Positions 19,701-64,000 of a DNA stretch of 64,000 bases are shown here, in pieces. The position numbers were made by a program, and so were the translations under genes. The DNA lies in the NCBI RefSeq assembly GCF_964355755.1, contig NC_092677.1, positions 5,230,101 through 5,294,100 on the forward strand. The letters are read 5' to 3'. Position 1 is the first letter of the stretch; each line of letters starts with the position of its first letter. Source of the stretch: Antedon mediterranea. Lineage: Eukaryota > Animalia > Echinodermata. The notes under the pieces are model-generated. The model saw nothing but the letters and a program-made list of their open reading frames with translations. It was not told the DNA's origin and searched no databases.

Positions 19701-20716
19701 AATTCACTCAATTGAGTCACGGTGATATTGGATAATGGTCATTCATAACTTTTGTTTATGAAGTACTGTATACTCTAACGAAACGTTTTAGATTGTCAGG
19801 ACAATCGCCAAAACAAACAATGGATAGAATTCATCGCGGGAATGGACTGTGAAGAACAGGCCAAGCAAGATAAAAAACAGATGGAAGGATGATGAGCATT
19901 TTCTGGAATGTTCTGGATGAGAGCTACTGCACAGGACAGGGAGGAGTTCCAATGCTGGAAATGTATTGAAATGATGATGTCAAAAGTCTAGGTTACTTAC
20001 AATAAACAGTAAGAGTAGATGGATCTGATAATTTAACAGCTCCATTTGCCTGTTGTATCTGACATTGATAACATCTTTGAGAATCATTTCTCAATGGCTT
20101 TACCATTACCAGGTCAGCTCTCCCATGCGTTATCTTCAACCTGAAACGGCCGTTTTCTTTCTTTTTATAATTCACAAAACCAATTTCAATAACCACTCCA
20201 TCTTCATTTAGTTCATTCCATTGTACTGCATTAGGTGTTGTAGAAGTAAATTGTGAATAATCACAAGTTATCACCACTTCAGCATCACCTTCTTTAGCTA
20301 TCTGGTGAGATGATGAAGTTTCTGTAAATTAAACGTGCTTGGGTTTAACTCTTTTTTTTAAAATAATAACTTTATACTTGAAAGGCAAACGTGAAACCTT
20401 TACTTATTATCACCCGATGCCAATCCGCAGCAGTTTTCAGATACAAAACGTAATGACGTCATGAATCTGCATCCTAAAAACCACTAAAAACATTATAGGA
20501 CTCGACGCTTGGCAGCACATTGATAAATATGTGCCTTGATACAATACATCCATACATTTTAGTACATTAATAAAATTAAACAAAAGTAGGCCCTATACAC
20601 TGTAGGCAAAAGCTGACAGAATGTATTTACTCAGATAATGAATTTTAAATAAAGTTGCGCTTACCGACAAGACAATGTACAACAAATAGTAGGCCTAGTA
20701 CCAAGTGTAAAGCCAT
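16716..20716 (-). CDS. Gene A: type-I membrane Ig receptor (signal-V-I-short Ig-TM-Tyr-motif tail). Exons 20716-20665, 20321-20001, 19288-18989, 18738-18514, 18043-17958, 17850-17719, 17428-17300, 16880-16716
   Basis: Signal MALHLVLGLLFVVHCLV. TM exon GTVITLSLILGSVLTFIIARYIY. Three phase-0 cytoplasmic exons (44, 43, 54 aa) with YQDL, YVKP, YQGL and YEEP. All splice phases are consistent, and the last exon is paralogous to the last exon of gene B. Confidence 0.8.
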
Positions 20717-34619: not shown

Positions 34620-37600
34620 ATGGGATTCATCCCATTTCTGTTCTTTTTCAGTACTTTGTATGGTGTGTAAATCTACTAGTACGAATCATATTTTTGAAAA
34701 TTTTGAAAAATGGTAAGTTGCTTTTGGTCTTTTTTAAACGTACACACCTGTGGTTCAATTGTTTTCAAATCTTTATTACTGAAAGGAATAAATAATAAAA
34801 TAAAATATTCCAATTTACTGAGGAATACAATTTGAAAGGCTATTTCAGAAAAAAATACGTAAATTAGTGCAAATCACATCAATTTTACACTAAAAGTGTT
34901 ACGTAACAATTGTGTTGCTTAATTTGTATAGGAGTACATGGTGAATTAGTGACATCATTTGACCAGACAGCCAAGGAAGGTGATGCTGAAGTGGTGATAA
35001 CTTGTGATTATTCACAATTTACTTCTGCACCTGATGCAATACTTTGGGATGAACTAAATGAAGATGGAGTAAGCATTGATCCTGGTTTTGTTAATTATAA
35101 GAGGATTGAAAATAGACGTTTTACATTAAATATAACACAGTTTGGGAGAGCTGATTTGGTGATGTCATGGCCAATGAAAAATGATTCTCAACGGATATTT
35201 CGGTGCCAGATACAAAAAACAAATGGAGATACTGAAATATCAAATCCATCTATTCTTACTGTTTATTGTGAGTAACAGATTAAATTTTAACTTTGTCATT
35301 AATGATTATTTAACTACTAAAACATAGATTCTGTCAGAGAGCTAGTAAGATGATCATAGGACACACGGATCTCCAATCCACAACCTCTGGATCACTAGCC
35401 AAGGCTTCTAGAGGTATATTATAGGTTCTAGCCCATTCTAGACTATAATGACCAACAGGTAGATATGCTACAAACAACTACAGTAATTCATGCACTGTAT
35501 ATTTTTTATTTTTCTCAGACTTAGATCAACCACTTCTTGAGGCCTCAGCAAGTACTGTCTACGAAGGTCAATCTGTGACCTTTACCTGTAGTAAACCTGG
35601 AGATCCTATTCCTCACATTACTTGGTATAGAGATGGACAGACAGTCAACACCAACAATCCTAGATATGAAATTGCAAATAACAGTACAGAGTCCGTTCTT
35701 AAGATTAAATCAGCTACTAAAGGAGATGATGGGAGATATACATGTAAATCAGAAAGTGATCAGTTTATAGGAGAGGATGCTAAAACAAGTGTAAAACAGT
35801 TGATTGTATTTTGTAAGTATAATTACTTCAATTTGCATTGCTATTAACAGTTAGGGTTTTTAGTTTAGCATTATCGCCTTATTTTTTTAATATTCATTTT
35901 TGATACTAGAAACGCATACCCTTCTAAGTACCCATCCTCAATTGTTCTTTCTGTTTCTGCAACAACATTTATTTCACCTACTACATGTTAGACTAATTTT
36001 GGATTTGTCAAGATTGCTTAAAAATCTGCATGAACACTACAGGTATTTTAGAAATGTAACCATTCAGTATTATTATGGGATGGTGTGTGGAAACCTCGTT
36101 GAAAAAAGAAGAAAATGTCCTGTGCTTACAAAATATCAGCTTTTCATTTATTTTATGTTAAAATATTATCAAATCAAGTTAAGATAAGTGTTATTGTGTT
36201 TGATTTGTTTGGGTCCAGGTCAAAGTACTCCCTTTTGTTTGTTGGTTGGTGTGGCAACTTCTGTTTAATTGATGGCTATGTTTACATGACATGTCTGTAA
36301 ACACTACCAAACATTGTGGTAGCTAGAAAAATGTGTATGCCTCACTATTATTAGCAAACAGACAAGATTGTGTTTATCTGGGTTTAGATTTTAAGAACTG
36401 AAAACTCAGATAAAGAATATATTTAAAATTGTTCCTCTTTGTAACCATCCTCTTCCCCATCCCTCAACTCTAATGTTATATACAAAACACAAATTGGGTT
36501 TGTTTAAATGAGTCTAAATCAAAAACTTGGACTCATTTTGAGACAAGTTTCTCTTTTGGAAGTAATTCTCAGGGTGCTAATTTTAGTTGACTGCATAAAT
36601 CATCATGTCTATTTATTCACATCTGTAAACAACAATGTATTATAGTCCTGCGGTACGTAAATTTAAAAAAAAAAACAGTTTTTTACGCTGAAATTACTGT
36701 GTATTCGAAAACCATATGTGGGCACGACCTAGATGGTACGCGTCTACTACAATTAATGAGTAAAATGTTTATAATTAATTTAAGAAGCAATTCAAGTTAA
36801 GTCAACCTAATGTTCTACAAACAAATTCTATTACGACAATAATGCTAAATTAATTTACATCTTCTTTAGATATTGCTGTTACATTTACATCAAAAGATAG
36901 TTTAGCAACATGTACAGCAGAGGGCCATCCCAAGCCATCATCAGTATTGATATTACAAAATGGAGAAGTGGTTAAGGAAGGAGAAAATACAGCAACTATA
37001 GAAATTAATGATGAGATGTGTCAATCAAATCTTACATGTTATGCAGAAAATGGAAAGCTTAATGGCACAACAACATTAGAGAAGTGTAATACAGGTAATA
37101 CTGTACTAATTTTATTCACTGGTAGAAGAATGTAACACTCATGTACAGGATATTAGATTTCCAATTTAGCTGGAAAAGAATGACAATAAAAATCTTTCTT
37201 GCTAGTTTCTTTATCATTCCTATAAATCCCCAATTTCATTAATTGTGTAAATAAATGTTAATTTGTTTTATTTTATATTATCCATAATCAAGTACTGTAT
37301 TACTTACATTTTAGACATGGTTGTATGTTTCAGTTAAATTTTATTTTTTAATGTAAGTCAGTTGTTGTCAATTCTTACTTTTTAGTAATAATGATGATAA
37401 TAGAAATAATAACTTATTTTTTAGCTTTAGCGTCATTGTACATTGTTCTGATTGTTGTTGGTTTGTTGTTGACATGGTTACTGCTTCTTGTCTGTAAGTA
37501 AAATATCTTGGTCCAAAATTAAAATTACGTTTCTTAAATTCTCCAATTTACTTTTGTTTTATATGTATGAATAGGATGTTACAATGATTGTACAAATTAA

Positions 37601-40600
37601 TTAATATTTTTAATGTATGGATTTTTTCATGTATGATTTTCTAATATATTTTTAATGTCTGCTTTTTTAGATTTTATTCTTTACAAGAATATTGAGTGGA
37701 GCAATACAGATATTGATACAGTGACAGTTGAAGGTGGTAAACCAGTTGAAATGGGTTTTAAATACCGTCCAAGTATTGCAAGGTTCAAGAGTTTTGAAAT
37801 AAAGAAAGACAACAAAGTGCTTGGTTCAAATCAAAAGCAATTCAGTAGTTGTAAAACAGTCTGTCAGTTTGTCTGTTATTGCTGTTTTTACTTTTGTGGA
37901 TTTTTTTGCATTGAATACTGCATCAAATCATGTAAGTAATATTTTTTCAGTCTAATGAAGTTACCATATAATTATTTTTGTATGTTGATTCTGTTTTCTT
38001 TATTATTTATACAAAGTTAAATTGCACTTTTTTATTTTATAGAAGACAAAAATTGCAAAAAAACAACAACAGCAAAGAGATAATAATAATACATTAGATG
38101 AATGTTTTTTTTTATTTAATAGATCATTATAACAAAATGAAACATGGACCAAGGTGAGTTTTATTTTGTAAAATTTGGTTAATATTAATAAAATAAGTAT
38201 TTTTTTAAGGTATAGTAATTGATGACTGAAAGTTTACAAACTAGTTTACAGTAATATTATAATTTTTTTATCTTGAACACTACAGGTGTGTTGAAGAGAA
38301 TCAGATGATGGTCAGAGAAAGAGAATGGCCCGATAGTTCAGATGATCGTTTTGTTATAATCAAATCAAATAAGGATGCAGAAACTGAAGACTGGCGAAAG
38401 GTTGTTTTTTGAGCATTTTTGTTCTCAATTCTCAAAATATATTTTTTAATTTTACTCATTACTAGTAAGAATTCAACGAAATCCAACATGCTTTAAATGT
38501 TGTTGGTAATGGATAAATGAAAATTAACTACAGTATATAATATGTGTGTCTTGCTTTATTTCAAAGATAAGTCCTGAGGATGAAGATATTAAACTTTTAT
38601 CAGAACATCAAGGAACATCAGGTTAGAGCAATTTTAATATACTAAAAATAGAACAAAATACAAATTTTTGAATACCGTATAAGCCTAATATTTTAATGTT
38701 ATGTTTGTTCAGATTGTTCTTCTGAAAGAATAAACAATTATCAGTTATGCAATCGGTTGTGTGTTGGTGGTTACATTGGATTATCCTCTAATTGTGAGGT
38801 TTAATTTCTTGCTTTCAAAGGTGTCCTACTGATATTTTTATTTATATCTTGAAGTCTAAATTTGTACTGTTTATGTGTTGTATTTTGTATGTTTATTGTT
38901 TTAGCAAAAGACTCAAATGAAAGGTAAAACATTTTAATATTTTATAATCAAGCTTTCAATTAATATGCAGTTCACTTCTTTCTTAAAATATTGACAACTA
39001 TGCTTACGATTCTCTGTTGTGAACATTATCTACAAAGTACAAAAATATGTTAGAACCATGTACGATAAAAATTGGGAGTTGGATAGCCGAGTGGTTAGGA
39101 GAATTGACTGTCATACAGATAGACCCGGGTTCAATTCCCGACAACTCCCAGTCCACTCAGCTGTAAATGCTAGGGAGAAAAAAGGCGACGTGGAAAGAAA
39201 CTGGCCACTCTACCACATAATGCCAAGGCTTAGTACAATGAGTTCCTAACAGCTCATTCCCCTACGTTCAGAGAACACGGGACTCACCTCACGATGAAAA
39301 TTGAATTTCATTTCTAATTTGGGTCAGTGTTTAAATTACTTTAACTCGCAAAATCAGTTTCAGTGGCCCCAATGTAGTTTCGTACCCAACCCTTCAAATT
39401 ACTCAAAATTGTTTCAATTATATAATCATCAAACCGTCTCACGGTCTACAACATCCTGCAAGCATACAATTGTAAAAAATTGATATTTAAAAAAAATTTA
39501 TAACCCTTTTTAGTCAATAATTGAGCACCTTCATAAATCCATCGACAGCTTAGCTACGTGAAAATCATTGCTACGCTACAATATGGCGGCCGGATAACAT
39601 GTACAGTGGCGTGGGCTCGTTCACCTAGTTGTATTGTGTGGAATAGTGTAAAATTTATTTTATCAAAAAAAATTAAACCGCTTTAAAATCTAAATCAAAA
39701 ATATTCATTTACTACTACATGTAATACACTTAACAGTGATATTTATTAGGGCGTTTTACAACAACAACCCATTTTTCCCTTACTTAAATTACTCTATAGA
39801 TAGAAATTAAGTTAAAATTTCATCTCACAGTATTGTTAGATACACTTGTGAAAAACGTAATATAACAATTCTTTGTGTGTCGGCTCATTGATCAGATATT
39901 TTGCCCCACTAAGAAAAGACACCATTTTACTAGATACTCTGTACATTATGGATACTTAATTCAAAATGAATTCTTAGTTGGGACTCAAAACCACAACCTG
40001 CAATTAGTTTGCCCTCCAGATCACTAGCTTGGCATACATCTAAACCATCAACAGTCAAATGTTGTAAGATCGAAACTGGCTCTACCAAACGCTGGGCCAC
40101 ATTCAAGCTTACAACATTTTACTGTTGATACTCGCGTCTTGCCTATGTTGGTTCTTGTTATCTTTTACAAAAAAATGTTATTATTTAATTGTGTGATGTT
40201 ATTTTTTTTTCCTGTTCTTTTTAATTGCTATCTCTTACCATATAGGTATCTTCATGCTCTTACCATATATATTATATTGTTTTTAGAATCTCATATATTA
40301 TACGATTATATTATTACATATTGATCATTACAGATGTATTTGAATTTATTCATCAACATCAGTGTGAGTTATTTCAGTGGTGAGACTATAGTACAATTAC
40401 AAATATTTTGTTTTTTATGTAGTTTTAAACAGACAGACTTAATTGATATACTGTATGTAAGATATCATTTCAAAACTACTGTAGAAATCCACTCCAGGAG
40501 TGCATACCTCCACCTACTGTAAAATTCACCTACATAAGATTTCTCTGGGGAAAAAATATATATATATATTTGTGTGTCTTAATGCTGTGTGCGATTTAGG

Positions 40601-43600
40601 CTAATTTCACTACAAGAATGTGTATGCGAATTTGGTGTAAAGTTCAGTTGAGTATTAACAATAGAAGAGGAACGGCAAAGACAAACAGATGAATTTGAAA
40701 AGAAATAAAATTTAAAACTGCTCGTATCAAAAAAGCTGTAAATTAAATCAAATTATGTTTTAACATTACAAATCACAAATTATACTTGGTGCCTCTTGTA
40801 CAAAAATGACGGTTTTTGGACAAGTAGTTCTTGAGAAAAGGCAAATTCAGTTTACTTATTACTTTAAGACTGCTCGCCAGCTTTTGAAAATTCTGTCCTA
40901 TCTTTTAACACTAGCAGATCTGAAAATAATACAAAAAAGTGGTCCAGAATTGGGACTGTGGTCTTTGACTTAAATATTTTGCAATAACTTCTTGAGTAAT
41001 CCTGCTAACAAACAAACAGACAAATGTGATCGATTACATATTCCTCCTTAGTGGAGGTAAATAACATTTATCTTTTTTATCTTTTAAATTAAATGTATAA
41101 TCATAGAAAACACTTTTTTTTTAGCACTGTTTTTTAAATCCCAGATATTTCCCTGATACACTGTATTTATATAAAGTTTACTATTTTTATTTTTATTTTA
41201 GATCTAAAACTTCATACTCAAGTAAGTAATAACAGAAATATTTTCAATTTTGAATTACAGTTAATTAAGCATAATTCACACAACATACATGTTTTTTTTT
41301 TTTAATTGTGCGTTTAAGTGTCTACAAATGGTAGAGGAAGAGTCCTCCTAACAATTACAAATACTGTGAGATCTGATTCAGGGGAGTTCAACTGCAGTAT
41401 AAAAGGCAGTAGACAACAGCATCCAGGTGTCAACAATATATTTGTTTGTTGTGAGTGTAATTTTTTCCTTACAGTATTGGAACATATTATTATATTATCA
41501 CATTTTGTTTCTCTTTATACATTTTATAGTTCATTTTATTACTAAAATGTTTAATTTTTGTAATTCTATGTATAATCCCAAAAGTAAAAGTCTAATATAA
41601 TTGTAAGAAGCAAATTCCATAAATTGCATAATATTTGTATATATCATTTTATTATTTAGGGATTGAGATGACAAAACCAAAGTACTCAACAGAACATGGT
41701 ACCAGTAATTTTGAAATGAAGTGCAGATATGGACCATCAGATATGCCATTAACAGGTTACAAGTGGAAGAAGATTAAGGAAGATGGCACAACAGAGATTG
41801 TGGATTGTTCTAAAGATTCTAGATTTGAAGTAACAAGTTACCAAAAAGACAATATTCTGTCTTTGAAGATAAAGAATGTTGTACTTGGTGATGCTGGGAT
41901 GTATCAATGTGAAGTGAAGCCAGTTGATGGAGAAAACATGCTGAAAGATACTAAACAGCTAACAGTGAAGATAGGTAATTGTTATATTACTATAAATTAT
42001 GGCTTTAACATGATAATTATATTTTTAGAGTTGATGATTCACAAGATACAATAGCATCTGAATTTAATGGTTATTAATTTTGAACGAGCTTGATTGTACA
42101 ACAAAAATATTTCACCAACAAAATAGAACATTATTGTTCTTTGAATAATCAACATGTTGTTTGTAAGCACCCTGTGGTACACATTTATAATTTAACATTT
42201 ATTTGCATGGTAAAGAGAACCTGTTTTTTTAATGATGGTATAACAATTTATTTATAATTTAAGTCCAGTTGAATTAGCCTAGTAAAATATGGGAGATTAT
42301 TATTTATTATTTTTTTTATTGACTTTACACATTTGTTCTGCTTGTTGGTGGACTATTTTCTCTGTGCAATAACCATTGCCATCTGTCATCTTTTTGCTAA
42401 GTGCATGATATTTATGTCACGTCTCCTCTTGCTGGAAAAGTTGGCTAGATGCACATGTGTATTCTCGTCTCATCATTCCAAACAAGCCACATTTTGAAGA
42501 CTCTGAAAAAATATTTGTATAATATTTTTGGAACTTAAATCTATTTTTTCGATTTTTTTTCCATTCATCCTTTTTTTTTTTTTGCAATTTACATTAAAGT
42601 AAATAGAAAAGGTTTGTAATTATAGCTATCCCCCAGATGACTTTTTTTATGTTTTTCATAATAACCATAAAGCATACAGTAAGAAATTAAAAAAATACTT
42701 GAATATAGGTGAAAGTAATGTTTATTATGATCTGAATAAAATAAAAATGTAAGATGATGTTTTTTTTAGATCCTATCATAATGAATATTCCAGATGTTAC
42801 TACCAATGAGGGTGTGAATTATGTTAAATTGTTCCTAAATCTCATGTCGTTTGATAATCCTATTAAAATATCCAATATCAAATGGTATAAGCATGAAGAT
42901 GGAGCAAAGAAGCGGCTGACATCATTGCAGTCACCTGATCCAACATCACGCTATCATGTTGGAGATGTGGATGAAAGCACATGGTGTCTTGTAATTTCAA
43001 ATGTTAAATCTGAAGATGAAGGAGAATACACATGTGAAGTAGAAATTGAAGGAAAACAGAAAATGTACAGTGTTTCTGGAAGTTTAATAGTTCAAAGTAT
43101 TATGTTTAAAAGCATGATAATAATTCTTAGACCTATCAACTCTTTATCTTAAGATATTAGTGGAAGTCTGCCATTATGTTGTATATTGATATTATTTATT
43201 TTATTTATTTCTCCATGAAGTAAATTCTTGAATGATAGCAATCAAAAACTGCACAGAAGATTGAAATATTTGTTAGAGATAGAGTATACAATGTTTGATT
43301 ATATTAGTGTAGATGTGTGTATGTTTAAATGATAGCATATAGTAGATAAGAATTAGGTGAAGGTGGTAGGTGGATGTAATGATCTTGTATATCAATTAGA
43401 CTATCATGCAATAAATTGGTTAATCAATATTATATATATATTAATAAAAAATGATATTTGTTAGTATAAATTTCATAATATAAAATATTGATATAAGAAT
43501 ACTAAGTATCATAAGTTTAAATTTTAAAATTTTAGCCAATCTTGTCAAAGGTCGAGCGCCGCGTTTCGATATTTAATATTGAACTTGACCGGACGTGCTT

Positions 43601-46600
43601 TGACAATATCTTTATATGAAAATGGTAGAGTAGATAGAACATAATAAATAATTTAATATTTACCGTAAAGTGGGGTTCAACTGAATCGGTTAAAGTATGT
43701 TTGATAAAAGTGCGTATAGAATGGAAATGCTTGCGTTTCGATGTGCGTGTGTAACAAAGCGTGTAATACTATGTATATCGTATAATAGATTAAGAAGAAA
43801 ATATGATAAGTATGATGGTCAAATATGAAAAAGTAGTTTAAGATGTAGAAATAGGACATTTGCTATATATAACGTTGTGAGGTAAATTCCCATATAATCG
43901 CAATCAAAAACGATATTAGGTTTGGTTTTTTCTTTTGTTTGGTTTTTTAAATGTGTCGTTTTTCCAAAAGGATTATTAGATTATTATACAATCGATTTTA
44001 CATTTTTTCACATTATTAGGCGTATAGTAAATAAAAAAATCCAGGTGAAAATTAATTACAGTACGTTATTTAATTATTACATTTTTTCCGTTACAGTTCC
44101 AATCTTGAAAATGGAAGATAGTGTGAACTGTGTTGCAAGAGGAGATGCTATGATTCCTTTTTATGTGTCACAACCAGACCAATTTCAAAACTTTGTGTTT
44201 TATAAATATGAATCTGATGAATGGAAGAAACTTGCTGATAGTTTTACAATGTTTGGAAGATATCAAGTTAAATTTAGAAAGGAAGATCAGTCAGGTTATC
44301 TTGAAATTTCTAAAGTTAAAACTTCTGATGATGGTGAGTACCTTTGCCAATGTGTGACAGAGGAAAAGGATAGTGTAACTTACTCAGCAAGAAGCAAACT
44401 AAATGTTATTGAAGGCTGTAAGTCACTTCATGTTTTAATTCAATTCAACATTTATTTTGACCAAAACTATTGTTAATTTCTTTTCTACTGGATGGGATGA
44501 AGATTTAAACATCAAATGATGTCAAAATTTAGCCTCTATCTTGTAGATTGGAGATTGAGGTTTGTGTACGATTACGATTTTAAAATGTCATGTTTATTCA
44601 TAGCCAAATTTGTGAATGTAAGAAAGAGGTGTTGAAATTTACATACATACTGTAACTTAGTAGAACATATGCATCACTTTTGTGAATTTTCTCAGATCTG
44701 TACCTTAAGTTGGCTTTGCTGTTCCACAGAACCTATTCTGATTTTTTGTTTTAGCATGACAAATTGAAGTGTTAGTAATCTTTCAATGTTTACACATGCT
44801 CATAAAACTTCTGGAATAACTGCTTTTCAACCACATGCTGCACTAACAATTGACATTGTAAACTGTAGTTCAATTTTATTGTTATGATGGTATAGGTGGG
44901 TTATTACTTGAATTTCTCCAAGGCTCAATTTTTACACCTTTCAAGAAATGTACTAAGGTATGCAAGTGACATACTTATATGTGTATTGTGAACTGTAATT
45001 TCATCAAATTTATTCATATTTCAGATATGAAACTGAATGATTGTCATGTGATACACAAAGATAAAGCTGTTTTAACTTGCAAGTATGAAATTAAGAATGT
45101 AGTGAAAGCTGTCCATTGGTATAAGAAGACTGCTGATGGAATGCCAATAGAAAAAATGCCAGAAAGATGTAAAGCAACTTGTAAGCCTAATGAAGCAAGC
45201 TTAGAGTTTGAAAAAGTGGAATTTACTGATGCAGGAGAGTACATGTGTGAACTAAAAACAAAGAGAGATAACCTCAAAGGAAAACTTAAAGAAACAATGG
45301 AATTTTTTTTATTTTCAGGATATAAATCACAAGCACACTTGAGTGTACAATGTAAGTAAATGTACATCTATTAGGAAAAACAGTATTGACAAAAGTTAAA
45401 TGGGTTCAGCTTGTAACTAAAAACTATCAAATTTTGTAAATTGTGTAAACATGTGGTACAGAGTATAATTAAACAGTTTACACTGAAATAGTCATACAGT
45501 CTAGGTTATCATTCTTTGAACACCCGATTAAAGTTAATTATTTTGTGTATTTTGCATCTTTAACAAAATTCCAATTTTTTATCACATACATAATAGGGTA
45601 TCAATTTTTCAAATTTTGTTATAGTTGATGTGTTTACTCAAACTAGTGATAATGAAAAATGCAGCTACAGGTATTCTTTTGTTTTTATTACCAGAATGTT
45701 TTTCAAAATCTATATACAGTATAGCCAATTCTTTGTAATGTATAATTTCATTTCATTATTTGAGTATATACATAACAAATAAAACTGAAATTGGGGAGAC
45801 CAGGGTCAACCTAAGTGAACTTAATCACTGTAGCTGAGCCGGTTTACCCAACCCCAAAGTCAGTTTACACATAAAAGACAAAGACAAAATACAGTTACAG
45901 CGAATCAAAATGAATGTGAACTTTTTTAATGAAGGCTGATGGGCTTTCTAGGACTGCAGCATCTGTCAACGGTCTGGGAACCTGGTCCTGGTCCATCATT
46001 GTGATGGGTATTTATTAAAATACAGTCATGATTGCTGCAGTCCAGAACCTTAAAACAAAATATAATAAGAAATTTATGTCTTCTAACGGACAAAGATGAA
46101 ACCAGTTTAACCAGTTATATGCACATTCTGTAGTACAGTGCAATGTATCACATGTGATGTCTGTTATAAGCCATTGAGAAACACATTCACCACATGTGAT
46201 ACTTGTGAAACTAACATATAGAATTTGTTTATGATACTGGCCATATGAAGAGACACAGTACAGATTATCTGGTATGGTGTAAATCCTTTTGTGTAGGAAT
46301 GGTTTTATTTATGTGGTTTTGTTGTGCCTGTTTTTGCCATACAACTATTTTTTTTAAATAGATGCAAGGTTTGTCTTAGAAATAAATAATTTGAGATATA
46401 GTATATATTTAAAGCTATTTCAAGCATTAAATCTTTTTATACTGTAAGTTGTGTTAGAATGTGCAATTATTGTGTATAGATACTTTATAACTTTTTAAGT
46501 TTCACTCTGTGTAATCAAATCATATATTTTTATTTCATAGACATCCTGCAGTGATCTTCATAAATTCTCATTTTATCATATTTTGTGAGAAAAACAACTC

Positions 46601-48867
46601 AGATGTGATAATGAGAAGAGGAAAATTGAATGGAAAGAGTATGATTGAATGGGAAGAACCAAGAATGATTTTGCAAGAAAAGGATACAAGGTATGAATTA
46701 AAGATATAGCAATAGTAATCTAATCTGACCTCGATTATTAATCTGCAATGACGTCCACTAGTTTTACTATCAAAAAAATAAGAAAATGGGTAAACTAGAA
46801 TTAAATTGTCACTTTCACGAGTTTAGATTAATCTCGCAAATGCAATGTGCACATACGTTGAAATATGAACACAAAAAGTAAATGTTTACAATGATGAATG
46901 TGTGTCTATTTTGTATCCTAGAGTATACATTATAAAATAGTATTTTATGTCTAAAGGGTTTAGTCGATTTTTAAGTTTGTTAATGTAAAAAATTCAGATT
47001 AAAAATTCAATTCAATACAATGTTTTAAAAAATGTATTTGTTTTCAAAGTGGAAAACATTTACAAATCTCACATAATAATAATAATTATTTTAAAACAAT
47101 AATCATTATAATAATTACCATGACGGTTTTTGCACGTTTCTGTTTGCTTCTGTACAGCTATCATAATATAGTACCAATTGTAACAAATAATGGAAAGGTG
47201 ATTCTAATGTGTGTTAAGCAAAACAACAAAACCAGTGAAAGGAAGATAATAAGGATGAAAACTTATGACAATGGAGACAATTGGATTGGACCATTTGACA
47301 TACAACTTGATTTGACAGACTTTCAAATGGATAGTCTAAGTAAGTTAGTATAATCTGAATCTGACTGACTATTCATATTCCAATGTTACCTTCTGCGATT
47401 AACGTAACAATCAAACCATTACACAGGTATTTTTATTGAGTTGTAAATTTTTCTTTATCAGAGGGGGGAAATGGCAAAATCACTGTGGTCATGTTACAAA
47501 GATATCGAAATGATATAGACTATCTTAACCAAATAAAACTCTTAGAAAGTAGGAATCCTTTTAATTTGCCATTCTTCCCCTGACTGTTATCAAACTGAGT
47601 GTTGATTATTTTTTGTGCAACTTACAAAAATCAAAATTAATAATCTTATCTCTAAAATGCTATTTTAATATTCTTGCCCCTTTTTTTTTATTATAATAAA
47701 AAAAATAAATAAATTGTATTATTATTATTTGTAATTTTTAGTTTATAATATATTGTACTGCTGTAAATTTGTAACAATACAGTACCTTTTAAATACTAAA
47801 ACATTACAATGTGTGCTTCCCAGGCATTGGTGATGGAAAATGCTTAAAAACAAAAAAATTGGTTGTTGCAGGAGTTTGCAAAATGGACAGTAATGCAAGT
47901 AAGAAAGTACCTTATAAACTTTCCTGTAATTAAGGTGCTCAAACAAAAGTACCGTAGTTACTTGCATTGAACTAATATTTGCATCACTTTGAACTTAATA
48001 TGATAACTGTTTGTCATTGTACTTTTTGTCTGTTATCTTGTAATTATTTTTTTATTAGTCGCAATAATTATTTAAATGATCAATGGTGTTATTTTGCAGA
48101 AAAACTAATTGTAATTATAAGTGACAATGAAGACATTTGGAATATTTTACCCCCTGTTACACCACCAGATGCTACTTTAGGAGAGCATACACAAGTAAGA
48201 TTTACTAGTGTTTACTTTTTAAGTACCTATTTTTATTTATAGTTTCTATGCTGTAAATGTCACTTTGTCATTATGGTAATTGTTTTAGATTATTGAATAT
48301 GCAAATGACCAAGTTTACATCAGCTGTTCATTGGAGGGCTGTCATCAAGTTTACGTTTCCTGCAGCAATGATAGATGTGAAACATTTGATGGCTGGGTTC
48401 AGGACGCATTTTTAGAGACAAGCCCAGAATGCCAGGTACCCTAAAACATGCCTGTTTTTAGGATTGTTTCATTCATTCATTACCATTTAAAGGGTAGATA
48501 ATATTTATATAATTTATTGTCATTTGCATTTTGTTCCATCTAGGGTGGTATTGTACGCTTACCAACAAAGTCAGGTAACTTCTACCAAATAGCAATGGCA
48601 AGTCATGGAAATGAAACAAACAAGGATCTTACACTTCACTTAAGCAAAGATGGTTGTAAAACTTGGTGTCAGTTTTACACACTAGGTGCAGTGAATGCAG
48701 AAGAATCTGACCTAGCTTACTACAGTGTAAAAGAAGGGAAAGAAGAAGCAGAGGGAATAGTGTGTGTTTACTGTTATAATTCCGAAACAGAGGGTTATAA
48801 TATTGGAATGCAGTTGATTTCTACCAAAGAAATTAACTCAAATTATAAGTGGCATTACTACATATAG
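34620..48867 (+). CDS. Gene L2 (complete, 23 coding exons, 1302 aa): signal-V-I-short Ig-TM-split Ig with Cys-rich insert-4 Ig-degenerate sialidase. Exons 34620-34662, 34932-35267, 35519-35812, 36870-37094, 37425-37493, 37671-37931, 38123-38153, 38286-38400, 38567-38621, 38905-38923, 41202-41221, 41319-41450, 41660-41974, 42770-43096, 44097-44417, 45025-45351, 45625-45670, 46541-46690, 47158-47339, 47824-47898, 48100-48194, 48289-48435, 48544-48867
   Basis: Exon lengths sum to 3909 nt in one frame with AG/GT boundaries. Signal MGFIPFLFFFSTLYGVHG and TM LYIVLIVVGLLLTWLLLLVYFILY. The 5' half is paralogous to L3 and the 3' half to L1. The signal exon is the least certain part. Confidence 0.85.
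36414..36583. repeat. Dispersed repeat, with an inverted copy at about 49780-49946
   Basis: TACAAAACACAAATTGGGTTTGTTTAAATGAGTC and GAAGTAATTCTCAGGGTGCTAATTTT appear as reverse complements near 49780-49880. Confidence 0.65.
39074..39290 (+). mobile_element. tRNA-derived SINE in an L2 intron
   Basis: tRNA-like head 39074-39149 (GGGAGTTG/CAACTCCC stem, A box TAGCCGAGTGG, B box GGTTCAATTCC), followed directly by a SINE-like body beginning GTCCACTCAGCTGTAAATG. Confidence 0.7.
39290..39830. mobile_element. Possible MITE with degenerate TIRs
   Basis: GATGAAAATTGAATTTCATTTCTA versus the reverse complement of TAGAAATTAAGTTAAAATTTCATC. No TSD verified. Confidence 0.35.
45625..48867 (+). other. GH33/NEU-like sialidase propeller domain of L2, catalytically degenerate
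   Basis: YRHPAV, VIMRRG, TYDNGDNW, SKDGCKTW, ECQGGIV, EESDL. Same 7-exon structure as in L1. Confidence 0.8.
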
Positions 48868-51800: not shown

Positions 51801-52324
51801 CAGCGTTCATCACTGTTTTACAGTATTTCAAATGTTATTGGTTGTTATATGTATTAACAACGAACTTTTAAATGAGTCGTCTGTACGACACAGAGTAGAC
51901 CTCGTATCTTGTATCATCATTAAGGTACGATAAACAAAACAATGATTGTTTTCATTTGCATAAGATGTTTTCAGTGTGACTTTCTATACTGTTTGCAGTA
52001 TACTTTCTATTTCTACTTTCTATTGTTTTACATTTACATAAGTTGTTTTAAACTTTATCAATTAACAGATCTTAATTTGAAAATTTGTTCTCATTAATTA
52101 ACTACTTGTAAAAATAATGCAGTAATTATCGATAATAATCAGTCTGTTCGAAATAAACATAGGCCTAACAGATAAGATGGTATCGCTCACCTCTTCCAAA
52201 TTACAAATTACAAATTATTTCTATGTGTACCAACCATACTTAATCATGGTTATCTTATCTTATCTTAGGCCCTAATTTTACTATTCATTACTTTATAACT
52301 TAAACACTAATTCGGGATGAACGT

Positions 52325-55300
52325 TTAGTCGTATAACTGTTCACAATAATGTGGTTCTGCAACCTTTTCTTTCTGTGACGTAATACAATCACGAGGCTCT
52401 TCATAAATGACCTCTTGACTTGAAGAAATAGGACTTTCAGGAGTTTGACATTCGATTTCAATCTCTTTTCTTTCCTAAAAAAACAAACAATAGCAATAAT
52501 AATTGATTGTTTCTATTGAATATATTTTAACAAAATATTATTGTTAATGATGTGTTAAAATGTTATCAATGTATGTGCCATGTCGTAGAAAAGATGGTTT
52601 ATTAGTCATTAACAAATTCATGGTACTTAAAAACAAGTTTCGATTGCTTATGATATAAATAAATATACTGGGTATATTTATTAATGTCAACACAATCTTT
52701 CCTACACTGAACGTTATTTTTTGTTAAGCTTAATTCCCTCTTGCATGCAACGTGTTGTTTTTTCCCGCTGTTCACTCCGTCAAATCGAAAAAAACTTCGG
52801 TGTAAGAGTACAACCATAGAGGAATTTATACAATAGAATATTGGAAAATTATGATTTCAGTCTCCCATTGATTCTGTTTTGTTGGAATACTTCAACAGCG
52901 TCAAACCACAGAGTTGTCAGAATTAATTGTAAATCTGTTCAGTATTAATTAATGTATTTAGGTTTTTTTACCTGTGTTCTTGTTCTGAATTGCCCTCTGT
53001 TGATTTTGCTGTAAACGTCAACATTGGATTGAGTTTTCACTTGGCCTTGACGATTTTGATATTTTGAATGGACTTCTCTTAATCGTCTTTGCTAAAGAAA
53101 CAATTTCAATAAAAAGTATTAGTTTGTTCGTTGGGTGCTTAAAGGAATGTTTATTCATCACCTTGACTTAAAACTGTAAACAAAAAGTACTTACATCAAT
53201 ACAACGTGTAAGAACAGAACCAAGAATGAATGCAATGATGATAGCCACAGTTAGTAGGCCTACCGTACCCATTTGAAACGAATCATCTAAAACTGTAGAA
53301 AAGAATTAACCGTTAGTTAAGTTTGGTTGTGAAATTATTGCAAATATTTATTTTCAATACTGGTCTAAAGTGGTGAATGATTAACAAGTTGAAATGTAAT
53401 CATTCAGACACTAACACATATTGGTAAATACAGTATGGTGACATACCTTTCAAATTTTCTGTAGGCCCATCTGTAGACATATCTGCTTTGGGCCTACAGT
53501 TCTCAAGTGATGTGGAGGCATTAAATTTTTCATTCTCTGCATAACATGTAAGATTTGATGAACATATCTCATCATTGATTTCTATAGTTGCTGTATTTTC
53601 TCCTTTCTTAACCACTTCTCCATCTTGTAATATCAATACTGATGATGGCTTGGGATGGCCCTCTGCTGTACAGGTTGCAAAACAATCTTCATGATTGAAT
53701 GTTGCGATCATATCTAATGAGGGAAGATAAAGCTTAAAGCTTAAGAAAATGAATATTCATTTGGAATCGATATAGGCCTAACAGCAAGAAAATTAAGCTT
53801 GTTATTACAGATTCAGTTCATCACACCTTTATTTAGTTATGAATATATCTGGGCCCTTACAGAAGAGGACCCACCACAGGACTCTAAATGAAAGAAAAAG
53901 AAACGAAAGAAAGAAAACTTTTAATAAACAAAGCAAATTCAAAAAGTTATTTTTAATTATGGGACCCTTTCTAAAGTACAGTACAATATATGGTAAATGA
54001 TGAACAAGAAAACTATTAATAAACAAAGCAAATTCTAAAAGTAAATGAAACATTCAGTAGGGTGGGGAGTAGGGGCAGAAAAAATAATAAGGATATTCAA
54101 AATTTAAGTATTCAGAATATAGATATAGAAAGTTTATTTTTACAAGAAAACAAAACAAAGGAAAACCAAATAGTGATATTTTTTCTAATTCAACTTATCG
54201 AAACTTCAGATTACTACAGTATATTACATAAAAACTATATTTTTGATCGGCTCATATCTTTAATAGTAGGCTATCATTAGATACAAACAAATGTACCACA
54301 ACATTGTCTACGTACAAAATATTTCAAACTGTTTTCCGGCACTAATTTTAGCATCAAGTCCCTTAAAAGGATCACTTTCTGCTTTACATGTGTATATACC
54401 ACTGTCTTCCATAGTGGCTGCTTCAATCTTAAGGGCATTGCCGTTGGTATTTATCTTCTGTCCATCTTTATACCAAGTAATGTAAGGAATAGGATCACCA
54501 TCAGGTTTACTACAAGTAAATGTGACTGTTTCACCTTCATAGACAGTGCTTGCTGAGGCATTAAGACGTGGTTGATCCATGTCTGAGAAAAACAATACAA
54601 AAAAACAACGAAAATAATGGTATACAAATAAAACAATTTACAAATTAAAGAATGAAAGACATTTATAGAGTAGACATAGTATTAATGAGGCATTAAGACG
54701 TGGCTGATCCAAGTCTGAGAAAAAGTATAAAACAAATTAGACAGCAGACAAATAAAGATGTAGTCAACACAAATTACAACAAAAAGAAGTGTATATAGTA
54801 TTATGCCTATTATTGATACTCAAGAAAATGTAGGCCTAACTCTAATTCCGGAGTTATACTATTGGCGTGACGTGGGAACATTTACAATTATAGGCCTACT
54901 ATTTAGTAAACAAATATTAAGGATGTCGGTTTATGATGTGTTTATTTTTCAGGCTACATCATGATTATCTGTTATACTCACAATATACAGTTAGCATAGA
55001 TGGACTTAATAATTTAACCAATCCATCTGCGGTTTGTATCTGGCATCTAAATATTCTCTGAGAATCGTTTCTTAAAGGATGTAAGATCACCAGGCTAGCT
55101 TCACCAGGAGCAGTGTGTAATCGGAAACGTCCATTTTCCATCTTTTTATCATTCACAATTCCTGGGTTGATGACTACTTCATCTTCATTTAGTTCATCCC
55201 ATTGTAGTGAAGTAGGAGTAGAAGTAAATTGTGAATAATCACAAGTTATCACCACTTCTGCATCGCCTTCTTTAGCTGTCTGGTTAAAGGTCGTTTGACC

Positions 55301-55622
55301 ATGTGCTTTAAAATATCAAGCATATCCTATTGTTTATATTTAACCAATGATAATTCAAAATTTAACTGTCTCAACCTAAAAATATATATATTCTACGAAG
55401 TCATGCAAACAAGTAAAAGAATAAAACTGCTCTCAATCAGCATCAGCTGTTTTTAGTTTTACGCGTTCGTAATCTGGTTATTGAAAAATAGTTCAATATT
55501 AACTGACTGACTAAAAAGTGTATGGTCGTTTAGTTGTTGATTATCATATTTAATTATATTTTAATTATCTTACCGACTAAGGATTGTATATATACAATAA
55601 ATAAAATTCGCTTCAAACCCAT
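52325..55622 (-). CDS. Gene B: type-I membrane Ig receptor (signal-V-I-short Ig-TM-Tyr-motif tail). Exons 55622-55574, 55305-54982, 54582-54316, 53713-53447, 53286-53195, 53091-52972, 52474-52325
   Basis: Signal MGLKRILFIVYIQSLVAHG. TM GTVGLLTVAIIIAFILGSVL. Tail with YQNR, VYSKI, VIYEEP and HYCEQLYD*. Splice phases are consistent, and the gene is paralogous to gene A. Confidence 0.85.
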
Positions 55623-57805: not shown

Positions 57806-59018
57806 TTGTCATGTGCAATTGTTAATGTGTGTATTTCAGGCTTCTAGAAGGCGGAAAATAGGGTGCCAGCTCATTATTTCAATTCATATATATAAACTCA
57901 TGAATGGATTAGGCTATATAAATATCTTATATCGAATGATAGTGATTAGTATCTTTTATATTCTTTTATCAATATCTAAAGTAATATAAATCATTGCTAC
58001 ATACATATCGGGAGAATTTTTTGGTTTATCCAAAATTTGAGAAAGACTACGAATTGCATTTTAACAGGAGACTTGAAATATATCGTGAGACTCCCATCAT
58101 CCCTATTGGGAAAGTTGAGAGGTCATGCTAGTACTGTATAAATTATGTATATTTTTATATGATTGATACCGAATATATATTTATATCTTTAATTTCTGTA
58201 GTAATTAAGAATGTTTCATAGTACAAAACACTCTCATGTGCAATGTACACATTGTTTTTTTTTTTGGTAAAAAATATGCTACAATTATATACTGTAAAAT
58301 GAAAAACAACTAGCAACTACACTGATTGCTTTTGAAATGTAAATCAAATTTCATTGCATTTTCACATGACTGAACACCAGTAGGCCTAACTAACTGTTCA
58401 AACAACAATCGTAGGAAGGCCTCTGTAGTTTGGAAGCTTAATAGTCAATTTACACAGACATGGGGTAATAGTAGGGAGTTGTTAATCGCTGGTAACAGTA
58501 AGCTGAAAACCATGTAGGTTGTCTCACGTAGAATCTTACTGAATCTATCCTGAAAACCGCCTGTTTGCTCTGTGTTGTGTGTAAGTGGTCATAAGTAATG
58601 ACATAGATTCTATATTTGTATTACCGTTACCGCTCTTCTGTGTAAATTGGCCTGTAGTACTACAGTAGTGTGTTTACTATTGTGGAATTTAGTTTCGCTT
58701 TTCATTGACATTTTCATTCCAAAGAATAGAACAATACAGAGCAAAACTGGGAAAATGGAATGGGATACAATTAAAGCTTTGTTTGTCAATCAGAAAACCG
58801 TTTTTGTCAGTACAGTAAATGGGCCATTTCTAATCTCAAAGACAAAATATATTTTTAAGATCAGTTTTTCTTGCCAGCAGAAACATACTGTGAACCCTAA
58901 CGAATAAATAACAGTTATAAAATCACAAGAATTTTGCCAATGTCAGAATACCCAGGGTACATAAATATGTATCTCTTGACATGATTAAATCAATTTTTTA
59001 TATTATTTTAATACAGAG

Positions 59019-62000
59019 ATGCATTTACTAGTAGGTGTAGTCATATTCCTGGTTTTTACTAATGGTAAGTACCTTGTATTTCATTTCAATACAGTTTTAT
59101 ACTTCATGCTTATTATGCGATTGAAAGTATCATTTTCTGTGATAGTTTCTAAGCAATATTCAAAATCCTGAAGGATGAAAGCCACACAAAAAGACAAATA
59201 AAAAAGCATAAATATATTTTCTTTACTTTAGACCTAATAATATATTCTTTCATTTCTAGAGGCCCATTGCCAGTTGGTGACAACATCTGACCAGGAAGCC
59301 AATGAAGGTGATGCTGAAGTGGGGATAACTTGTGATTATTCACAATTTACTTCAACTGCACCTTATGCAATACAATGGGATGAACTAAATGATGGTGGAG
59401 TAATTATCAACCCAGGAATTGTGAATACTAATAAGGTGCAAAGTGAACGTTTCAGGTTAGAAACTTCTCCTGGTAAAGCTAATCTGGTGATGTCACAACC
59501 GCTGAGAAAAGATTCTCAAAGAATATTTCAATGTCAGATAAAAACACTAAGTGGAGATATTCAGTTATCAAATCCATCTATTCTAACTGTATATTGTGAG
59601 TAAAGTAGATTTAATATTCTGTTGTTATACCACTATTTCTGATGTAATACAATATTGCACCTCTGTAGAAGTTAACCTTTTTAGTAGATAGAGTCCTGGA
59701 GCATCAGTTTGGTAGTAGGGGTGTGAGAGACTGAGGTGAACACATTTTAGACAATAGACCTTTAGCTGCACCTAGAAATTTCATTTAAACTTGGAATTTA
59801 TTGACTTTATTTATTATTATTTTTCTGTTCTATCAATGTTTTATCTGAAAAATATAGAACACTAACAATGAAAGTGCTAAAAGTATAATGAATAAAAATA
59901 TCCAATCTGCAGACAGTACTATTTTGATCTTAGATCTTGTCAGTGCAGCTCAGGTTTCACAATTATTATATAGCTTAAGCTAGTTATGTTGGACATGGTA
60001 CACTGATTATGAACACAAAGAGTGCAGAAACTCAAGGAGCGAGCGTGCAATGAAAAATTCTATTAAATAATAAATTATTCTAACAAAAATGCATGGTGTG
60101 GATTTGAAGAGTGCTAGTCTAGAAAACAACATGCTTTTGTATAAAGCAGAATATAGAGAAGTGTAATATCTTATCTGCATAAAGAATAAATATAAATAAA
60201 AAAAATTATTTAACAACATTAATGATCTTTACTCTAGAAAATGTATTCTTAAAAAATACATTTATATTTTCTTTCTTTTGATAATCAGACTTAAATCAAC
60301 CACTTCTTGATGCCTCAGCAAGTACTGTCTATGAAGGTCAATCAGTGACCTTTACCTGTAGTAAACCTGATGGTGATCCTATTCCTGACATTATTTGGTA
60401 TAGAGATGGACAGACAGTCAACACCGACAACCCTTCTAGATATGAGATTGCAAATAGCAGTACAGAGTTAGTTCTTAAAATTAGATCAGCTACTGATGAA
60501 GATGGTGGGAGATATACATGTAAAGCAGAAAGTGATCAGTTTAAAGGAGATGATGCTAAGACAAGTGTTGAAAAACGGTTGATTGTAATTGGATATTGTA
60601 TGTACACATTACTTTTAACATTACTATTAATAATTGTCTTGTTAAAAGTATGATTTATGTGATTTAAATTTGATTTTAGTTTTAGTTTAAATCTAGAGAT
60701 AGACAGCATTAACATGAGCTAAATTTGTCTTTTTAGATATTTCCATTAATTTTACATCTGATGGTAGTTTTGCAACCTGTTCAGCAGATGGCTATCCCAG
60801 ACCATTATCAGTATTGATATTACAAGATGGAGAAGTGGTTAAGAAAAGAGAAAATACAGCAACTATAGAAATTAATGATGAGATATGTCAATCAAGTCTT
60901 ACCTGTGATGCAGAAAATGGAAAACTTAATCAAACAGCAGCATTAGAGAACTGTGGTCCAGGTCATACAGTATTCAGTAAATACAATTATTACAAAGCTA
61001 TACATACAAGTTTTAAAACAATATTTTAAGAAATTTAAAAATGTTGTTATAAAATAGGTCTTCCTGGTTGATAGTATATACCATTCACCAGAAAGAATAA
61101 TACATTGCTTGAATGTTAGACCTACAGATAAAATTAATTTACATTGACATCTGAGCTGATCTTGTACCCCTTTTTCAGATATCACTGTTGAGTTTACATC
61201 TGAAGATGGTTTTGCAACATGTACAGCGGAGGGCCATCCCAAGCCATCATCAGTATTGATATTAAAAGATGGAGAAGTGGTTGAGAAAGGAGAAAATACA
61301 GCAACTATAAAAATAGATGACGAGATATGTCAATCAAGTCTTACATGTTATGCAGAGAATGGAAACCTTAATGACACAGCCACACTGGAGAACTGTAGGC
61401 CCAAAGCAGGCAGGCCTACAGATGGGCCTACAGGCAATTTGAAAGGTATGTCACCATACTGTATTTACCAAGTTAGGTTAGTGACTGAGCAATACATGTT
61501 GGTGGTATTTAGTTTAATGTAAAATGCAACCAACCATTGTTAAAAGATGATTTAATCATCGTAGTGATGTCTCAAAAGAGAAAGAAAGTTAAGAGAAAAA
61601 ACAAAATGATTAAACAAATGTGTCAATATGAGTTAACAAATTAGAAAATAGTATAAAACAATGTTAATGTGTAGAAGAAAATGAATGTTAAAAGAAAATT
61701 TTTTTTGATTTTATTTATTACGTGCAATGTATTTCAATATTTTAAAAGATGATAAAATAAAAGTGGGATATACCAAGTAGATCACCAAAATACATTGCTC
61801 TTTAAACACTCCTTTTTGTTAAAACACAATTTGAAACAATGCAACTGTCAGACATTAATAACATGATGATTAACATCGCATATTTGTATTGCTTTATTTC
61901 ATGTTCATCAAGACAACAACTACTAAAGTAACTACCATATCACAACATATTCTGCCTTTTCCATCTTCCCCATGAAACATCCAACCTTCCTCATTAGCAG

Positions 62001-64000
62001 TTAACACAATATCGCAAAACAGAACACCAATAAGACTGGAAATTGGCACAGCCATTCTTCTTAACCAGAAATAGAAAACATTTTTATAAAATTGTGGTCA
62101 GTTGAAGAATTCACTAATTGCATTTTTAAAAATCACAGTAAATACTGCTGCAGGATATTTAACTGTAATGTATATTCATTTAAAACATTGATAGAGGTTT
62201 TTCAACGATAAGATGTATTTCCATTGAAATAACTTTGTTTTGATAATTGTTTATAATTGATAATAAATTTGTTGTTAACAGTTATTTCAGAAGATTCAGG
62301 ATCATCATATGCCATAATTCTGATTATTTTGTTTGTTGGTTTATTGACATGGTTTCTTCTTCTTGTTTGTAAGTATCATGTACTGTATTACTTAATGTCA
62401 CTTTGGAATATCATAAGCCCTTTTTATTTCAGTGAATTTTAATAACAGTATTCACAAATTTGAAACCCTCAACTATGTTAGGGTTACATGGAGTACTATT
62501 AGAATGTTTTTATTTAGAATTTTTTATTTAGAATTTTTTATTTTTGGGATTTTGATTATTAATTGTAGTTTGATGAGTAATGAAACGAAATAAATACTGC
62601 ATGGACATAGATTACATAATATTTCATAATGATATTGATACAAAGATTGCTTTTACAGTATATTGGTAGACCAATAGGATTTATTTTAATTTAAAAAAAT
62701 TTATTTTGTTTTAGATTTTATTTTTTACAAGAACATTGAGTGGAGCAATCAAGATAATGATATAGTGAGAGTTGAAGGTGGTAATCCAGTTGTGATGAGT
62801 TTTAAATACCGTCCAAGTATTGCAAGGTTCAAGACTTTTGAAATAAAGAAAGACAACAAGGTGCTTGGTTCAAATCAAAAGCAATTCATTAGTTGTAAAA
62901 CAGTCTGTCAGTTTGTCTGTTATTGCTGTCTTTACTTTTTTGGATTTTTTTGTATTGAATACTGCATAAATAAAGGTAAGTTACATATTTTAATTTTGTT
63001 AGTAGGTCATTGTTTCTCAAGTCATCATTTCTGACAGTTCTAAAAGTTAGTAGTCTGATGTTGTTATTATTGATATATAAAAGTTTTTAAATACAGCACT
63101 TTTTTAGTTTATTCTGCTGGGAGAATGATACATTGTTTGTATATCATTTCTGTTCATTATACCTGTACATTAGATGAATATTTTCTTATTTTTATTTAAT
63201 AGTTAAATACAACAATAAAGATAAAAAGAAACATGGAAGGAGGTGAGTTGAGTTTGTAACATTGGTGGGATTTATTTTGATTATTATATTTTAGCTAATT
63301 ACAAATTTTATTGAAAGGTTATGGTTAATAAAAGAGAATGTCCTGGTGATGCATAGGTCTTCTTTGTAGTTTAATATTATTATCTTGTATTGTGTTCCTT
63401 ATAGCAGTGGCAATAGAGGTGGTGAAGAGTATCAGATGATGGTCAATGAAAGACAAGGTCCTGATGGTGCAGAGTTACCTGCTGTTGTAATACAATTACC
63501 TAACAAGGATACAACAACTGACGAAACTGCTGTACAACAACCAACAGCAGCCACTGAATCTGAACAAAGTTCAGAGGTATTGTGAAAATACTAAATCCTT
63601 CATTCCTTGAATTGAAAGTACAAAGATACAAAAAGAAAAAAGACATGTTTGTTTAATAAAGTATTGTGTGTTTTGTGGTGTTTCAAAAAGGAAATTTTGA
63701 CTCCTCCAATTTGATTCCTCTTTGGTACTTAAATTCTGTTTTTTACAATAAAATGTTATCCTTTTTTTTCTAATTAGAGTAAAACCTATTCTTTGGGACA
63801 CCTCTATTCAAGGGCCACCCCAATTAAGGGGATACTTATCTGTGAAATGAATGAGACGCAATTTATTATATTGTAGCACTATGGCCAACCTTATTGTGAG
63901 CCAAATGTGACCCTTATGGGTTTTACTATATTAACAAAATATAATTGTTTTTTTCAAAGACAAATCCTGATGACGAAGATACTGAACTTTTAGCACAACA
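59019..64000 (+). CDS. Gene L3, 5' portion (continues beyond the window). Exons 59019-59064, 59260-59595, 60289-60597, 60737-60961, 61179-61445, 62291-62368, 62715-62975, 63203-63242, 63405-63576, 63960->64000
   Basis: Signal MHLLVGVVIFLVFTNEAHC, then V, I and two short Ig exons. TM YAIILIILFVGLLTWFLLLVYFIFY. The 261-nt post-TM exon is nearly identical to that of L2. The last exon matches L1 483-537 and L2 38567-38621. Confidence 0.85.

Follow-up and report, generated by a model that had tools for sequence, protein, structure and literature searches.

Several described systems share one part or another with the gene treated here. Integrin beta4, as presented in PMC8394641 and PMC2173954, is a single-pass receptor with a tail of ~1000 amino acids (aa), in which four cytoplasmic beta-sandwich (FN3) domains, a membrane-proximal palmitoylated Cys cluster and Tyr phosphorylation have been described. 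The Hydractinia Alr family comprises tandem V-/I-set receptors, in long and short members, with Tyr-motif tails resembling ITIMs (immunoreceptor tyrosine-based inhibitory motifs), and the parts of PMC9546547 drawn on here mention no folded cytoplasmic array of immunoglobulin (Ig) domains and no propeller. In the account of PMC10840359, the Cys-rich segments of yeast CYSTM proteins, once called transmembrane (TM), proved to be palmitoylated anchors, and CYSTM/CYSPD carry such a TM-like helix as a C-terminal motif of proteins of 60-150 aa. For sialidases, PMC3431349 gives R21, D46, E218, R237, R304 and Y334 as the essential residues and NEU5 as an ambulacrarian group of NEU2/3/4-like enzymes; as presented there, the 2012 survey found all six residues conserved, but only sequences having them were kept. 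Here, we analyzed a gene at 34620..48867 of a 64,000-nucleotide (nt) stretch of the Antedon mediterranea genome (contig NC_092677.1; hereafter the window, from the first letter of which all coordinates are counted). With a probability of about 0.55, we regard the gene as one copy of a tandemly expanded crinoid gene family of the Ig superfamily (IgSF), in which a receptor with a V-I-Ig ectodomain and one TM helix is fused to a likely cytoplasmic, likely non-enzymatic signalling-scaffold tail.

The architecture, an IgSF receptor with an animal pseudo-sialidase, is real and apparently undescribed. The sequence-only reading that preceded this work had recognised the domain combination in no described receptor family, and none was found in the literature on crinoids and echinoderms, IgSF receptors and sialidases, in which few subscription journals were covered; the word 'sialidase' is absent from the parts of two IgSF reviews (PMC13262535, PMC11999971) available to us. 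The component parts are all known and RefSeq models already exist unnamed, while the tail is the unusual feature among clustered invertebrate IgSF receptors. Integrin beta4 may serve as the closest working analogue and as a precedent for long cytoplasmic beta-sandwich receptor tails, but, as described, it combines FN3 repeats with an integrin ectodomain and has neither an Ig array nor a sialidase fold, and the comparison is an analogy only. Likewise, the likeness to the Alr family is architectural only. Unlike the C-terminal CYSTM/CYSPD motif, the Cys-rich segment found here is internal in a protein of 1302 aa, and the exon encoding it, exon 6, has no Pfam match.

Rebuilt from the coordinates and the splice signals, the gene held together in the 23 in-frame exons first proposed for it: 22/22 introns are of the GT-AG type, and 3909 nt encode 1302 aa with one terminal stop. 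The reading frame depends on three micro-exons of 31, 19 and 20 nt. Their reported conservation between paralogs applies to the latter two, which have the same lengths in the long paralog L1 (2072-2090, 3758-3777), but not fully to the 31-nt exon, the match of which in the long paralog L3 measures 40 nt (63203-63242), though in the same phase. As in type I IgSF receptors, the Ig ectodomain precedes one strong TM helix (~300-327; Kyte-Doolittle hydropathy (KD) 2.98); the description of 'one clear TM' missed a second, marginal hydrophobic segment rich in Cys at ~385-405. We scanned 16 exon translations against Pfam under curated cut-offs. Among the eight Ig domains claimed, those of exons 3 and 13-16 passed, whereas exons 2, 4 and 12 gave sub-threshold Ig matches and exon 6 none. 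The 'five more Ig domains' after the TM helix consist of four intact ones and a first one broken in two by an insert of 109 aa (107-197 aa among paralogs), which contains the Cys segment and a charged linker. Against a profile of 28 intact Ig domains from the family, the halves mapped to positions 6-51 (exon 6) and 68-105 (exon 12) in 7/7 proteins, and a search with the region in ESM Atlas gave generic Ig matches. With the micro-exons lying between the two parts of the split Ig, the 5' and 3' halves of the gene interlock. AlphaFold modelled P0011, a RefSeq isoform of the family, at low confidence (7-sequence alignment, mean pLDDT 42), with the split Ig and the propeller unfolded. In the PDB, the post-TM array was closest to titin I65-I70, by sequence and by fold, a shared trait being several domains without the canonical disulfide; this is a weak, generic match, with the ectodomains of Robo and contactin scoring close to it, and titin is no membrane receptor. 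In P0008 and P0011, a second tail Ig has an 8-aa tandem repeat inserted in the same region of the loop, and the P0006 linker has a Gly-Pro repeat; large loop inserts are thus tolerated in these Ig domains.

The C-terminal part had been assigned to the NEU2/3/4-like GH33 fold, which was borne out by a BNR_2 match (E 1.7e-15) and by Foldseek matches to human NEU2. The model of P0001 (63-row alignment, mean pLDDT 82) superposed on human NEU2 with template-modelling scores by target of 0.71-0.79 and root-mean-square deviations of 3.5-4.1 A. The family shares with metazoan NEU2/3/4/5 and human NEU2 the six-blade propeller, the RxP motif with R21 and remnants of the Asp boxes, but differs from metazoan NEUs in the loss of D46, E218, R237, R304 and Y334, in the fusion to a receptor end and in its long branch. 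The catalytic sites were mapped via a hemichordate sialidase aligned to NEU2. R21 is the sole survivor of the six in 10/10 family proteins, including two of Anneissia japonica; in all ten, R237 is replaced by Ser/Thr and E218 by His and R304 is absent, while Y334 is Glu, Cys or Ser and D46 a gap or Thr. This copy retains R21 as R979 and has H1144, S1160 and E1249 in place of E218, R237 and Y334. The stand-alone Anneissia NEUs keep the four catalytic residues covered by their records. The analysis thus shows the anatomy of the gene, namely its exon structure, domain order and sialidase fold, and the loss of five of six catalytic residues; the propeller is, judged by these residues, a dead NEU2/3/4-like (NEU5-type) domain. 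His and Ser/Thr are invariant in both crinoid genera, which suggests a remodelled pocket. In a quick tree of 16 named rows, none of them NEU1, and 50 unnamed matches restricted to 330-420 aa, the family was sister to the Anneissia stand-alone NEUs (SH-aLRT 96) inside the group of ambulacrarian NEUs (99). An origin of the propeller by transfer from bacteria was also considered and is not favoured by this tree. A query of Ig plus propeller in ESM Atlas returned no usable feature match and, by structure, sialidase clusters only.

Of 68 candidate proteins, 7 matched the last exon, all of them from Antedon mediterranea, and a search of 1.84 billion representative proteins gave 147 matches, 10 of them at E <= 1e-30. 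Outside the cluster, the latter were P0012, on another Antedon chromosome, and two Anneissia japonica proteins on one scaffold (P0015, P0013), one of which has a V-set Ig preceding its propeller. Protein databases, from which the copy number is taken, place at least 12 RefSeq models bearing the propeller or the post-TM half-Ig on one chromosome and a further one on another, all automatic and named 'uncharacterized'. The ectodomain is connected to the propeller in P0002 (1435 aa), P0005 (1411), P0006 (1166, two accessions) and P0008 (1454). P0009 and P0011 are isoforms spanning TM to propeller, P0154 and P0155 (isoforms X3 and X2) extend from the leader through the first intact post-TM Ig, and P0012 (three accessions) and P0156 are TM-less and begin at the half-Ig exon. 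Transcript data underlie such isoform sets in RefSeq. The full receptor fusion turned up in 4 of 1183 long candidates, Antedon only, whereas the combination of Ig and dead propeller is common to two crinoid genera. Spliced contigs came from run X5, which consists of contigs only and was taken to be RNA by guess. They joined 41450 to 41660 exactly at the predicted site (GT..AG, 108 letters on the short side), 41221 to 41319 at the predicted site (GT..AG, a weak case with 22 letters on the short side), and the TM exon to exon 6, again at the predicted site. Whether the receptor half and the Ig-sialidase half are one gene or two was a question raised from the start; the RefSeq paralog and multi-isoform models, together with the spliced paralog contigs, support a real fusion at the family level.

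A neutral simulation kept the frame and the splice sites in 1/300 copies at 2% substitution per site and in 0/300 at 5%. The ratio of non-synonymous to synonymous rates (dN/dS), pooled against the in-window paralogs, was 0.48 for the ectodomain (bootstrap confidence interval 0.32-0.69), 0.66 (0.50-0.89) for the post-TM Ig and 0.59 (0.39-0.86) for the propeller; the intervals lie below 1 for these three large regions and include 1 for most single exons and for the half-Ig plus Cys segment. Based on the simulation and dN/dS, we regard the frame as real and under moderate constraint. Pairwise dN/dS of the V domains (0.35-0.69, 6 pairs) gave no sign of diversifying selection. The count of three copies with intact frames has to be narrowed, as L1 and L3 are truncated by the window ends and just part of each frame was checked.

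The 5' end is the part of the gene that could not be retained as drawn. Exon 1 of the sequence-only reading overlaps the polypyrimidine tract and the acceptor of the exon homologous to the L3 signal-peptide exon (Table 1), and its donor scores 5.3 versus 8.8 for the homologous exon (the other 21 donors, 3.4-11.0). By exon alignment, the signal peptide is intact in L3 and in the short member S2 but doubtful in this copy, in which an in-frame reading of 34652-34712 puts Arg/Lys within the hydrophobic core. The signal-peptide exon was probably mis-drawn or secondarily re-invented: the leader has either been re-invented (or is supplied by an unseen upstream exon) or else is broken. Since the 22 other exons are intact despite a private synonymous change of ~6% in the ectodomain (10/169 sites), a rescue of the 5' end would be favoured.

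The tail, i.e., the Ig array and the propeller, is probably cytoplasmic, for which the absence of post-TM enrichment in N-glycan sequons, the missing Ig Cys, the YxxM/ITIM-like motifs and the basic-flanked Cys cluster speak together. In five proteins, among which paralogs are not independent of each other, 39 sequons were observed before the TM helix versus 19.1 expected and 44 after it versus 42.0; the figures for this copy are 6 versus 3.2 and 4 versus 7.2. The B-strand Cys is missing in three of the five post-TM Ig domains. The linker encoded by exons 7-11 is the site of a YxxM or ITIM-like motif in paralogs: YxxM stands at the homologous site in 6/8 proteins, and in the 81-aa insert of isoform P0155 two motifs match the ITIM strictly and there is a third YxxL. 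At the homologous position this copy no longer has the Tyr, and no ITIM ((I/L/V/S)xYxx(I/L/V)) is present in its linker. The Cys segment consists of 21 aa with 6-7 Cys, preceded by 2-4 and followed by 4-6 Lys/Arg in 6/6 proteins, and has only a marginal membrane-insertion energy; P0008 is without it and otherwise of the same architecture. By analogy with CYSTM, the Cys cluster with its basic flanks looks palmitoylated rather than membrane-spanning. An internal in-frame GT donor in exon 6 (37862-37863; L3 counterpart 62906-62907) could drop the segment and is a possible splice switch for membrane anchoring.

We propose that the ectodomain binds a cell-surface or microbial ligand, as may the paired short members. 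The Cys-rich helix would be S-acylated and clip the tail to the inner leaflet without crossing the membrane, and both halves of the split Ig could therefore pair on the same side. The disordered insert would carry phospho-tyrosine sites (YxxM in most paralogs, ITIM-like in one isoform), the Ig array would be a spacer keeping the propeller off the membrane, and the propeller, derived from a crinoid NEU5-type sialidase, would serve as a module for binding and not as a hydrolase, its remodelled pocket having conserved Arg, His and Ser/Thr. The clustering, the paired short receptors and the motifs suggest a role in immunity.

A number of findings weigh against this account. The private pN/pS of this copy, 0.53, is not significantly below neutral (p 0.08), RefSeq models just its 3' 657 aa, and 2099 shorter candidates included no protein that covers the TM and split-Ig region of this copy. 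The ATG at 34660 in the L3-homologous signal exon is out of frame, its distance to the donor being 53 nt rather than 46. With a divergence of ~8-21% from the window, the X5 contigs come from paralogs, and X5 also covers introns; among the X5 matches listed, there is no transcript of this copy and no joint for 38400-41202 (linker exons 8-10) or 45351 to 45625. The full-length fusion was not found outside Antedon, as the Anneissia records comprise Ig and propeller only. The first half of the split Ig matches its profile weakly (6.8-10.8 bits; shuffles had a mean of 1.0 and a best of 11.3 in 140), and the 64-kb window yielded no counterpart of the P0155 ITIM exon. With respect to the topology, two of the five post-TM Ig domains keep both canonical Cys, post-TM sequons exceed the expectation in some paralogs (P0002, 12 versus 8.1), the strong TM helix has no positive-inside signature (1-2 Lys/Arg versus 2-3 acidic residues in the next 15), and the Cys segment has TM length.

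Inactive trypanosome trans-sialidases are used as lectins, and IGSF1 has a two-pass layout. If the Cys-rich segment were a second TM helix, the Ig array and the dead sialidase would lie outside as a glycan-binding arm, which we consider rather improbable. The segment, 21 hydrophobic residues with a KD of 1.75-1.89, is present in 6/7 proteins and predicted to be helical at low confidence; Ig arrays and glycan-binding propellers usually act outside, and echinoderms are described in PMC3431349 as rich in cell-surface sialic acids. However, basic residues flank the segment on both sides, with more after it; the two Ig halves would end up on opposite sides and the YxxM/ITIM-like motifs outside; sequons are not enriched after the segment; and P0008 does without it. 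The loss of two of the three Arg that bind the carboxylate also speaks against sialic-acid binding. Improbable, too, is a diversified family of immune-type receptors, evolved in crinoids, with an integrated pseudo-enzyme sensor: the dead sialidase, its pocket re-tuned to Arg/His/Ser in both genera, would hang from a cytoplasmic Ig stalk and detect an intracellular ligand. That ligand might be leaked glycans or a pathogen factor aimed at sialidases, sensing outside and inside would be coupled in one chain, and optional splicing of the Cys anchor and ITIM exons would switch the output. Plant nucleotide-binding leucine-rich repeat receptors (NLRs) have integrated decoy domains, of which such a sensor, if true, would be the animal counterpart.

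A different doubt concerns this copy, which might not be made as a full receptor but yield a soluble cytosolic Ig-array plus pseudo-sialidase protein or nothing, with the paralogs supplying the fusion. The RefSeq model of the locus, P0001 (XP_071958848.1, 657 aa), starts in exon 13 and skips exon 14, TM-less models from the half-Ig exon exist (P0012, P0156), the out-of-frame ATG and charged residues mark the homologous signal exon, the conserved linker Tyr is lost, and ~13 kb of repeats and transposon remains lie upstream. We nonetheless hold a reduced copy to be unlikely, as exons 2-23 are open and their splice sites intact at the ~6% private synonymous change, when no simulated copy survived 5%; an in-frame hydrophobic leader with a usable donor is available at 34620-34662, and the old signal exon has decayed, in keeping with its replacement. 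That gene prediction chained a short receptor gene to a separate Ig-sialidase gene downstream, which would make the fusion an artefact of annotation, is highly improbable. Short receptors with the same ectodomain do occur in the window, TM-less 3' models exist (P0001, P0004, P0012, P0156) and the bridge relies on micro-exons. Against an artefact stand the conserved length and phase of the micro-exons, the interlocking of the halves through the split Ig, and several independent RefSeq models that run across the bridge; in addition, spliced contigs cover three junctions, and no stop or alternative last exon was found between the TM helix and the half-Ig in the modelled frame.

If the receptor with a cytoplasmic scaffold tail is correct, it would place a tandem Ig array on the cytoplasmic side of an animal receptor, provide an animal pseudo-sialidase, and contain a natural Ig domain split by a signalling insert of 107-197 aa. 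The expanded family, paired with short receptors, belongs to the echinoderm class with the least-studied immune receptors. The pocket residues are specific and testable, and the range of interest is narrow.

Table 1. Features of the long gene and of its relatives in the window.
Feature	Position	Strand	Description	Basis or remark
Exon 1 as first drawn	34620..34662	+	in-frame hydrophobic leader, upstream ATG, non-homologous GTGTGT donor	uncertain
Homologue of L3 signal-peptide exon	34652..34712	+	GTAAGT donor	aligned to 59017-59064
Exon 2	34932..35267	+	V-like Ig with both canonical Cys and Trp	ig E 0.086 only; alignment of paralogs
Exon 3	35519..35812	+	I-set Ig	Pfam E 4e-17
Exon 4	36870..37094	+	short membrane-proximal Ig-like domain	Ig_2 E 0.0015, under cut-off
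Exon 5	37425..37493	+	TM helix running on into exon 6	hydropathy; helix in paralog model
Exon 6	37671..37931	+	N-terminal half of split Ig, then 21-aa segment with 7 Cys (37863-37931)	
Exons 7-11	38123-38153, 38286-38400, 38567-38621, 38905-38923, 41202-41221	+	charged linker within split Ig	
Exon 12	41319..41450	+	C-terminal half of split Ig	
Exons 13-16	41660-41974, 42770-43096, 44097-44417, 45025-45351	+	four V/I-like Ig, two without B-strand Cys	
Exons 17-23	45625-45670, 46541-46690, 47158-47339, 47824-47898, 48100-48194, 48289-48435, 48544-48867	+	GH33-fold pseudo-sialidase propeller	
Paralog L1, 3' part	477..14412	+	one extra Ig	RefSeq XP_071958844.1, P0005, 1411 aa
Paralog L3, 5' part	59017..64000	+	signal exon intact, third Ig present twice, TM, half-Ig, Cys segment, linker with YxxM	
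Short member S1	18455..20716 (receptor, 17000-20716)	-	signal exon candidate and ectodomain exons	head-to-head with this gene
Short member S2	52300..55622	-	same ectodomain, TM, short Tyr-motif tail	head-to-head with L3; 3' end approximate

The short members lie head-to-head with long genes and the tail of S2 has the Tyr motifs DVYSKI and VIYEEP; thus, the cluster looks like one of paired receptors. Exon duplications alter the domain number in the long paralogs, the third ectodomain Ig being present twice in L3 (60739-60963, 61181-61396) and the last tail Ig twice in L1 (6957-7268, 9725-10033). In S2, a partial duplicate of the start of the I-set exon was found at ~54717-54690 (minus strand), within the preceding intron. 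Among the mobile elements, fragmented open reading frames at 31275-33470 (minus strand), 1.2 kb upstream of the gene, resemble a decayed transposon or an uncharacterised mobile gene and may affect the promoter. Between S1 and the gene, inverted blocks of a 21-nt tandem repeat occupy 21900-24400, with open repetitive frames on both strands. Long open reading frames at 7517-9652 (minus strand), 12431-13390 (plus) and 25206-27545 (minus), the first two inside L1 introns, read, by their motifs, like reverse transcriptases of long interspersed nuclear elements.

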